This document shows positions 13,534 through 14,888 of a stretch of 64,000 nucleotides of DNA, piece by piece. Position numbers and translations under genes: made by a program. The number at the start of each line of letters is the position of its first letter. Positions within the stretch are counted from its first letter, which is position 1. The notes below the pieces were generated by a model. It was given only the letters and a program-made list of their open reading frames with translations, searched no databases and was not told the origin of the DNA. This stretch comes from Escherichia coli (GTDB taxonomy: Bacteria > Pseudomonadota > Gammaproteobacteria > Enterobacterales > Enterobacteriaceae). The stretch lies in assembly GCF_045037415.1 (NCBI RefSeq), contig NZ_CP173438.1; one strand, written 5' to 3'.

Positions 13534-14888
13534 ATGTTTTCAGAAGTCATGCGTTATATTCTCGACCTCGGCCCTACGGTGATGCTGCCGATTGTCATCA
13601 TTATTTTTTCTAAAATATTAGGCATGAAGGCAGGCGATTGCTTTAAAGCGGGTCTGCATATCGGGATTGGCTTTGTTGGCATTGGCCTTGTGATTGGCTT
13701 AATGCTGGATTCCATTGGCCCGGCGGCGAAAGCGATGGCGGAAAATTTCGACCTGAATCTGCATGTGGTCGATGTCGGCTGGCCGGGCTCTTCACCCATG
13801 ACCTGGGCGTCGCAAATTGCGCTGGTGGCGATTCCGATTGCGATTCTGGTTAACGTGGCGATGTTACTGACCCGTATGACGCGGGTGGTAAATGTTGATA
13901 TCTGGAATATCTGGCATATGACCTTCACCGGCGCGTTGCTGCATCTGGCAACCGGTTCATGGATGATAGGGATGGCGGGTGTGGTAATTCACGCGGCGTT
14001 TGTTTATAAGCTCGGCGACTGGTTTGCCCGCGATACCCGTGATTTCTTTGAGCTGGAAGGCATTGCTATTCCGCACGGTACGTCGGCGTATATGGGGCCA
14101 ATTGCTGTGCTGGTCGATGCTATCATCGAGAAATCCCAGGCGTTAACCGAATTAAATTTAGCGCCGATGATATTCAGCGCAAATTTGGCCCTTTTGGCGA
14201 ACCGGTCACCGTGGGTTTTGTGATGGGGCTGATTATCGGCATCCTCGCGGGTTACGATGTCAAAGGTGTATTGCAGCTGGCGGTAAAAACGGCGGCAGTT
14301 ATGCTGCTGATGCCACGGGTGATTAAACCCATCATGGATGGTTTAACGCCCATCGCTAAGCAGGCCCGTAGTCGTTTACAGGCGAAGTTCGGCGGTCAGG
14401 AGTTCCTGATTGGCCTTGATCCGGCGTTGCTGCTGGGACATACGGCGGTGGTATCGGCAAGCCTGATTTTTATTCCACTCACCATTTTAATTGCTGTTTG
14501 TGTGCCGGGTAATCAGGTGCTGCCGTTTGGCGACCTTGCCACCATCGGCTTCTTTGTGGCGATGGCGGTCGCGGTGCATCGTGGAAATCTGTTCCGCACC
14601 TTAATCTCGGGTGTCATCATTATGAGCATCACCCTGTGGATCGCGACGCAAACTATTGGTTTGCACACCCAACTGGCGGCTAATGCGGGCGCGTTAAAAG
14701 CCGGGGGTATGGTGGCTTCAATGGATCAGGGCGGTTCTCCCATTACCTGGTTACTGATTCAGGTTTTCTCCCCGCAAAATATTCCCGGTTTCATTGTTAT
14801 CGGCGCAATTTATCTTACCGGTATTTTCATGACCTGGCGTAGAGCGCGTGGTTTTATTAAACAAGAGAAAGCCGTTCTCGCAGAATAA
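13534..14888 (+). pseudogene. gatC: PTS galactitol-specific EIIC, disrupted by a frameshift near 14129-14136
   Basis: Two consecutive membrane-protein ORFs (13534..14223, 229 aa; 14211..14888, 225 aa) in different frames together span 1355 nt, one nt short of a 451-aa gene. The frames switch at gagaaatccc (14128-14137). Confidence 0.75.

Follow-up and report, generated by a model that had tools for sequence, protein, structure and literature searches.

A single-base deletion in the galactitol permease gene gatC, very probably a lineage-fixed pseudogene of the Escherichia coli ST131-H30 clade

Results

The stretch of DNA analysed here, referred to below as the window, comprises 64,000 nucleotides of Escherichia coli (NCBI RefSeq assembly GCF_045037415.1, contig NZ_CP173438.1). 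Between approximately 10.6 and 16.9 kb it carries, on the plus strand, a complete galactitol (gat) locus in which gatC, the gene for the membrane permease of the galactitol phosphotransferase system (PTS), is interrupted by a frameshift. The evidence presented below indicates that this gatC is very probably a young, lineage-fixed loss-of-function pseudogene of the H30 subclone, or clade C, of sequence type 131 (ST131). Genes were called from open reading frames (ORFs) and from the annotation of strain JJ1887, the window coordinate being the coordinate in the JJ1887 gat locus plus 9033. The locus is composed of the following genes:

gatY, 10608-11462, plus strand: tagatose-bisphosphate aldolase subunit, intact (JJ1887 annotation; protein id equal to that of strains with an intact gatC)
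gatZ, 11491-12753, plus strand: intact (ORF and JJ1887 annotation)
gatA, 12763-13215, plus strand: PTS galactitol transporter subunit IIA (EIIA), intact
gatB, 13246-13530, plus strand: PTS galactitol transporter subunit IIB (EIIB), intact
gatC, 13534-14888, plus strand: PTS galactitol transporter subunit IIC (EIIC), pseudogene, 1355 nt, frameshifted
gatD, 14936-15976, plus strand: galactitol-1-phosphate 5-dehydrogenase, intact
gatR, 16082-16855, plus strand: DeoR/GlpR-family repressor, 257 aa as annotated, full length (NCBIfam DeoR-family matches)

The gatC span measures 1355 nt, as compared with 1356 nt (451 codons plus stop) in intact alleles. When the window gene was aligned with the 1356-nt genes of strains 2016C04-116, 1403KP, EC36 and one K-12 strain, one A was found to be absent from GAGAAAATCCC, the window reading GAG-AAA-TCCC. 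This missing A is the only difference, over the whole gene, from the intact allele of 2016C04-116 and 1403KP. The gatC of SE15 matches the same intact allele at 100% over 1356 nt, so that here too the window differs by the deletion only, and the intact gene is annotated as WP_000490658.1 in SE15, ZH063, 2016C04-116 and 1403KP. A sequence-only reading of the window had located the motif gagaaatccc at 14128-14137 with its A-run at 14131-14133, the stop of the upstream frame at 14221-14223 and the end of the downstream frame at 14888, over a span of 1355 nt; these coordinates all hold, and the loss of a single base in the A-run that it proposed is what the alignment reveals. Since a single A is missing, the change is a plain 1-nt deletion in an A4 run, which rules out the +2 event that had been offered as an equivalent. 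The resulting features of the broken gene are:

Lesion site, 14131-14133, plus strand: AAA where intact alleles have AAAA, at the K200 codon, with the first base of I201 lost (alignment)
Out-of-frame tail, 14134-14223, plus strand: 29 codons (SQALTELNLAPMIFSANLALLANRSPWVL), then TGA at 14221-14223
Native-frame remnant, 14223-14888, plus strand: Met231 to the native stop, 221 codons, covering positions 223-407 of the TIGR00827 profile

The upstream ORF thus runs from the ATG at 13534 to the TGA at 14221-14223 (229 codons) and keeps native residues 1-200. The native C-terminal frame stays free of stops between 14052 and its own terminator at 14886-14888, and its Met231 ATG (14223-14225) overlaps the premature stop to form TGATG, leaving the 30 conserved residues 201-230 encoded by neither piece. 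With the frame restored, the 451-aa protein scores 710 bits against TIGR00827 (cut-off 542), matches PF03611 over residues 8-386 and aligns over its whole length with 9u82, a solved GatC structure, with few substitutions across the lost segment. The two fragments score 338 and 305 bits against TIGR00827, both below the cut-off. On this sequence evidence the window gatC is a galactitol-family EIIC by descent of which a complete member is no longer encoded.

The single-base deletion in gatC is the only lesion of the locus, as judged from the other gat proteins, whose RefSeq protein ids in JJ1887 are those of relatives with an intact gatC; the corresponding window genes are identical in sequence to those of JJ1887. 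This includes gatR (16082-16855), which, as the sequence-only reading had stated, is a full-length ORF free of any insertion sequence (IS); its protein id, WP_001367074.1, is the same in strains with an intact gatC, among them SE15 and ZH063.

To determine how widespread the deletion is, a 40-mer centred on the deletion junction was searched against 5426 complete E. coli genomes by megablast with a 28-base word, a setting in which only deletion carriers can match. The junction was found in 369 of these genomes, in every case at 100% identity, and it is absent from the ~4,700 others in which gatC is present (gatC was detected in 5080 of the 5426). Carriers whose names are informative belong to ST131, among them JJ1886, JJ1887 and several genomes named 'O25b:H4-ST131', and the RefSeq PGAP annotation of their gatC is a 'frameshifted' pseudogene, as seen directly in JJ1887. 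Every gatC examined outside the clade is 1356 nt long, except for a K-12 allele with two inserted bases that is discussed below.

The window differs from JJ1887 by one single-nucleotide polymorphism (SNP) in 50 kb and from ZH063 at 9 positions in 49.8 kb. These distances identify it as ST131, and by sequence it belongs to clade C/H30. Four strains, CD306, JJ2434, JJ1887 and uk_P46212, match the deleted allele at 100% over 1355 nt, and JJ1886 carries the junction as well. The intact allele, identical but for the extra A, occurs in many genomes, including SE15 (ST131 clade A), ZH063, SaT040 and S21EC. The fimH genes of these last four are of a non-H30 type, having Arg166 where JJ1886 has His166; they differ from the H30 allele at 12 sites in SE15 and at 18 sites in ZH063, SaT040 and S21EC, and the latter three also carry the ibeA island. 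In published strain labels SaT040 is H22, ZH063 is H35, CD306 is H30S, and JJ2434, JJ1886, JJ1887 and uk_P46212 are H30Rx (Johnson et al. 2016, PMC4933990). The full-length fimH genes of ZH063 and SaT040 are identical in RefSeq (WP_001531278.1) in spite of their different labels in that paper; by label and sequence alike, both alleles are non-H30.

Two SNPs linked to gatC, in fbaB and gatZ, give the same branching order as the state of gatC itself:

SE15 (clade A): fbaB 9873 T (I182); gatZ 12012 T (synonymous); gatC intact
ZH063 (B-like): fbaB 9873 G (S182); gatZ 12012 C; gatC intact
Window (clade C): fbaB 9873 G (S182); gatZ 12012 C; gatC deleted

The gatZ change (V174, GTC versus GTT) is common to the window and ZH063 and is not found in SE15. 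Read on these sequences, the deletion is younger than the divergence from the H22-type clade B and dates from no later than the base of H30, a subclone that takes in the fluoroquinolone-susceptible H30S. The A would have been lost in the ancestor of the H30 subclone (clade C), before fluoroquinolone resistance arose, and probably by replication slippage in the A4 run, a mechanism that we infer.

Codon 182 of fbaB, the gene for a class I fructose-bisphosphate aldolase, reads AGT (Ser) or ATT (Ile), a non-synonymous difference; Ser182 is common to the window, JJ1887 and ZH063 and is not present in SE15, 2016C04-116, 1403KP or EC36. By its distribution, Ser182 appears to be derived in ST131 clades B and C.

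We also searched 50 kb for linked SNPs that are derived relative to both ZH063 and SE15, and found two. One is 53307C, a synonymous SNP in wcaB (G102, GGC versus GGT) lying 39 kb from gatC, whose 40-mer is present in 367 of the 5426 genomes; the match lists of the deletion and of 53307 share many accessions and have the same first and last ones. In sequence terms, wcaB 53307 looks like a second clean clade C marker. The other, 48080G, is intergenic with no annotated feature; JJ1887, ZH063 and SE15 all have A at this position, and it is the sole difference from JJ1887 in 50 kb. It was dropped as a clade marker, being found in 62-64 complete genomes only, and on this distribution it marks a sub-lineage within ST131 clade C that holds the window strain. 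With 369 deletion genomes against 367 linked-marker genomes, the deletion is essentially a fixed clade marker and not a switch, and this comparison of counts and samples, which is not a genome-by-genome intersection, gave no sign of frequent reversion of the A-run.

Several other differences were seen among the ST131 relatives outside the gat genes. In ZH063 the gene yegL (window ~33391; 30563-31221 in the ZH063 locus) is without one G and annotated as frameshifted, while it is intact in the window and JJ1887; the ZH063 gene is either a homopolymer pseudogene that arose independently in this strain or the product of an assembly error. The interval from yegL to mdtA (window ~31-33 kb) holds two Ibs type I toxin genes in ZH063 and JJ1887 and four in SE15 (31439-31823 in the ZH063 locus, 31075-32119 in the SE15 locus), a copy-number variation of a small toxin-antitoxin repeat. 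SE15 has only 98.2-98.6% identity to the window in the colanic acid (wca/wz) region (window ~52000-62500), compared with ~99.7% over 14468-32783 and 3 differences across the ~10-kb gat locus (9034-19388). Recombination in clade A around the O-antigen/colanic acid region could account for this divergence.

Discussion

The deletion in gatC is expected to have a simple consequence for the cell. Translation of the upstream ORF would produce native residues 1-200 followed by 29 wrong residues, and would halt at 14221-14223, leaving the galactitol phosphotransferase system of the cell without a complete membrane permease (EIIC). Because the EIIC is incomplete, the uptake and phosphorylation of galactitol (dulcitol) by the Gat system would fail despite intact GatA, GatB, GatY, GatZ, GatD and GatR. 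Expression of gatD is possibly also reduced, through polarity from the premature gatC stop.

Published phenotypes agree with this picture. Dulcitol-positive reactions were recorded for none of 7 H30Rx isolates, none of 10 H30 non-Rx isolates and 2 of 3 non-H30 ST131 isolates, amounting to 2/20 for ST131 versus 15/20 for non-ST131 (P<0.0001; PMC7783844). In another study API tests scored 36% of 25 ST131 isolates as dulcitol-positive, compared with 60-100% in other sequence types, and the authors found no gene deletion that would account for the ST131 result (PMC3917908). In K-12, galactitol use is lost when a single base pair is inserted into gatC and is regained through indels that put the frame right (PMC5850726, PMC3945185). 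The gatC deletion is therefore the most likely explanation for the dulcitol non-fermentation of H30 strains, the loss of transport being something that we infer from the truncation, the phenotypes of published isolates and the experiments with 1-bp gatC indels.

Some observations weigh against this interpretation, or against the tightness of the association with H30. The overlap between deletion carriers and H30 was checked on named strains and through near-equal counts, not genome by genome. A 40-mer over fimH His166 (R166H) was tried as a marker for H30 and rejected: it matched 442 genomes, including Nissle 1917 and ATCC 25922, which belong to ST73, and this count is not comparable with the 369 because the 40-mer is not clade-specific. 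The dulcitol phenotypes come from published isolates and not from the window strain. In Biolog respiration assays, moreover, dulcitol use differed little between ST131 and other sequence types, a discordance with the API results that the authors ascribed to oxidation versus fermentation read-outs (PMC3917908). Given the Biolog data, there may be residual or alternative galactitol uptake in ST131. A Klebsiella-type second galactitol locus has been described for LF82-like strains (PMC5517970) and could, if carried by ST131, explain the Biolog result. ST131 retains the sgc operon (seen in JJ1886, 19019-24564 in its locus, outside the window), whose SgcC bears the annotation PTS sugar transporter subunit IIC; this operon is a candidate for residual galactitol-related uptake, if H30 strains show any.

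Homopolymer indels are a common class of sequencing error, and the window alone would be insufficient to dismiss the idea, raised by the sequence-only reading, that the true sequence is AAAA and gatC one uninterrupted gene of 451 codons. An error of sequencing or assembly is nevertheless scarcely conceivable, because 369 complete genomes, sequenced independently by many laboratories and on many platforms, show the same junction. The count is close to that of an unrelated linked SNP (367 genomes), the closest relatives outside H30 lack the deletion, the tract measures no more than 3-4 nt, and the published phenotype data fit a real lesion. The genuine inactivating mutation that had been listed beside the error is thus the one that stands, its junction tracking one clade. 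One may also ask whether the A-run is a phase-variable (contingency) switch that flips between A3 and A4 at high frequency, turning galactitol uptake off and on, as the lesion does sit in a mononucleotide run and gatC frameshifts do revert under selection in mice (PMC5850726). The tract, however, counts three A in the window and four in intact alleles, with no long homopolymer or repeat. Known contingency tracts are far longer than 3-4 nt. Practically the whole clade has the off allele (369 versus 367 genomes), and the sampled H30 genomes are 100% identical over gatC, with no tract-length variation met among close relatives, so that we consider a switch of this kind very improbable. Slippage by RNA polymerase, for its part, needs runs of about 8-9 or more A/T; transcriptional slippage at the A-run was discarded, since the run here is only 3.

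Two further explanations would preserve some function of the broken gene at the level of translation. The native frame would be recovered by a -1 slip at any point from 14134 to 14220, and two heptamers of the X_XXY_YYZ type lie in this interval:

A_AAT_TTA, 14154-14160, plus strand: in-phase -1 heptamer in the mutant frame, derived from native AAA TTT (Lys-Phe)
A_AAT_TTG, 14181-14187, plus strand: second in-phase heptamer, of the same native AAA TTT origin

A slip at A_AAU_UUA or A_AAU_UUG would yield a 451-residue GatC with 9 or 18 substituted residues and some function. Lying downstream of the deletion and ahead of the premature stop, the two heptamers have the phase that such a slip requires, the 80 nt downstream have a predicted fold mildly better than that of shuffles (z = -1.9, 10 of 200 shuffles being as good), and the Biolog data do show dulcitol respiration in ST131. 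The heptamers are, however, native Lys-Phe codon pairs read in a shifted phase, with flanks identical to those of intact alleles, so that nothing here evolved for recoding, and 8.5% of shuffles contain one or more in-phase heptamers by chance. Similarly, the downstream fold was not selected for a role in recoding, because its sequence is identical in intact alleles. Programmed frameshift sites are conserved across orthologues, whereas this frameshift is limited to one young clade and the two-frame arrangement is not conserved among orthologues. The motifs A_AA.U_UU.A and A_AA.U_UU.G fall outside the classes that are efficient in E. coli (H_HH.U_UU.Y, V_VV.A_AA.R and others), and the tetramers U_UUA and U_UUG hardly exceed background, even when a strong pseudoknot is present (PMC4066793). 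Finally, none of the 17 H30 isolates fermented dulcitol. The likeness to the programmed -1 sites of dnaX and of the IS3/IS911 type lies in X_XXY_YYZ heptamers in phase upstream of a 0-frame stop; here, in contrast, the motifs are of an inefficient class, a conserved stimulator is lacking, orthologues do not share the frameshift, and the ancestor was a single ORF. The sequence-only reading was right to rank a programmed-frameshift-like site as least likely, and we give recoding very little credence. As to the split gene, the overlap of the UGA at 14221-14223 with the AUG at 14223-14225 is of the kind that could couple termination to re-initiation, producing two half-permeases that assemble into a working transporter, and each half still matches its half of the EIIC-GAT profile. 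But the halves would be residues 1-200 plus the tail and residues 231-451, with the 30 conserved residues 201-230 in neither, and the solved orthologue 9u82 aligns across just this segment with few substitutions. Upstream of the ATG there is no clear Shine-Dalgarno sequence, only GUGGG; the UGAUG overlap is pre-existing native sequence (GTG ATG GGG, V-M-G) and shows no adaptation; and the published isolates are dulcitol-negative. A functional split permease is accordingly most unlikely, and a lineage-fixed pseudogene remains our reading of gatC.

A heptamer of an efficient class was also noted upstream of the lesion: A_AAT_TTC at 13743-13749 is in phase in the native gatC frame and belongs to the H_HH.U_UU.Y class (efficient per PMC4066793). 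A slip at this site would only truncate GatC, and the motif is regarded as due to chance.

A frameshifted gatC has been known from K-12. In MG1655 (NC_000913.3), gatC (b2092) is a 1358-nt pseudogene and gatR is split by IS3E, and the operon was reported to be constitutively expressed (PMC5850726). The two cases are alike in that the same gene has a small frameshifting indel and is annotated as a pseudogene while the other genes of gatYZABCD are intact. The sequence-only reading had contrasted the gatC frameshift and IS3-disrupted gatR of MG1655 with the intact gatR of the window; the contrast is borne out in NC_000913.3, but the gatC lesions themselves differ. The K-12 lesion is an insertion of GG at the window-equivalent position ~14446, ~315 nt downstream of the ST131 site, and MG1655 and strain 2F_0 both have A4 at the ST131 site together with the GG insertion. 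The events, an added GG (1358 nt) in MG1655 and a lost A (1355 nt) in the window, are therefore independent. In another MG1655 record gatC is 1356 nt long, which makes the K-12 lesion a property of the stock, whereas that of ST131 is at the level of the clade.

Comparable lesions were obtained in E. coli evolving in the mouse gut, where the gat genes of gat-negative mutants had been hit by IS elements or by small indels, one of them a 1-bp indel in gatC (Barroso-Batista 2014, PMC3945185; Sousa 2017, PMC5850726). Galactitol use was lost in these mutants through gat lesions, as would be expected for the window allele, and the loss could be reverted by frame-restoring indels. However, those mutants arose in a gatR-defective, constitutive K-12, while the window allele is a natural one, with gatR intact, present in 369 of 5426 genomes.

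This difference bears on whether the deletion was selected. Loss of gat was strongly selected in the mouse gut in the constitutive, gatR-broken K-12, and no gat-negative mutants appeared over 19 days once gatR had been repaired (PMC5850726). Strong selection of the K-12 type is consequently not to be assumed for H30, because gatR is intact in the window. Natural human isolates are polymorphic for the galactitol trait (PMC5850726). It is more economical to suppose that the deletion hitch-hiked as H30 expanded clonally. One may speculate that the deletion was positively selected in the ST131-H30 ancestor and contributed to the success of the clade in colonisation, although we regard this as rather unlikely. 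If it were so, the benefit might lie, for example, in the removal of an inhibitory or costly galactitol uptake in the human gut, or in a shift of niche use relative to resident E. coli.

In itself, the gatC described here is an ordinary pseudogene that is already annotated as 'frameshifted' in H30 RefSeq records, so that the consequence for genome annotation is little: one more frameshift pseudogene, flagged as such. The H30 gatC deletion has probably surfaced indirectly in two pangenome papers, in one of them as a 'gatC loss' signal associated with the evolution of quinolone resistance (PMC10575684). In the searchable literature on ST131 with galactitol, gatC or dulcitol, we found no paper stating that the deletion is specific to H30 and the cause of the dulcitol-negative phenotype. 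The link between deletion and phenotype is a small addition rather than a new kind of biology.

The deletion provides a clean, single-base marker of ST131-H30 that was already in place in H30S, before fluoroquinolone resistance. It also offers a simple genetic explanation for a dulcitol non-fermentation that had been left unexplained from gene content (PMC3917908, PMC7783844), and a caution for pangenome studies, in which pseudogenes split into two ORFs can look like 'two alleles' or like 'gene loss'. For the biology of the clone, the point of interest is the gut. Galactitol is a contested carbon source there, for example between E. coli and Salmonella, and a pandemic clone that would be unable to import galactitol through Gat is of some interest for gut ecology.

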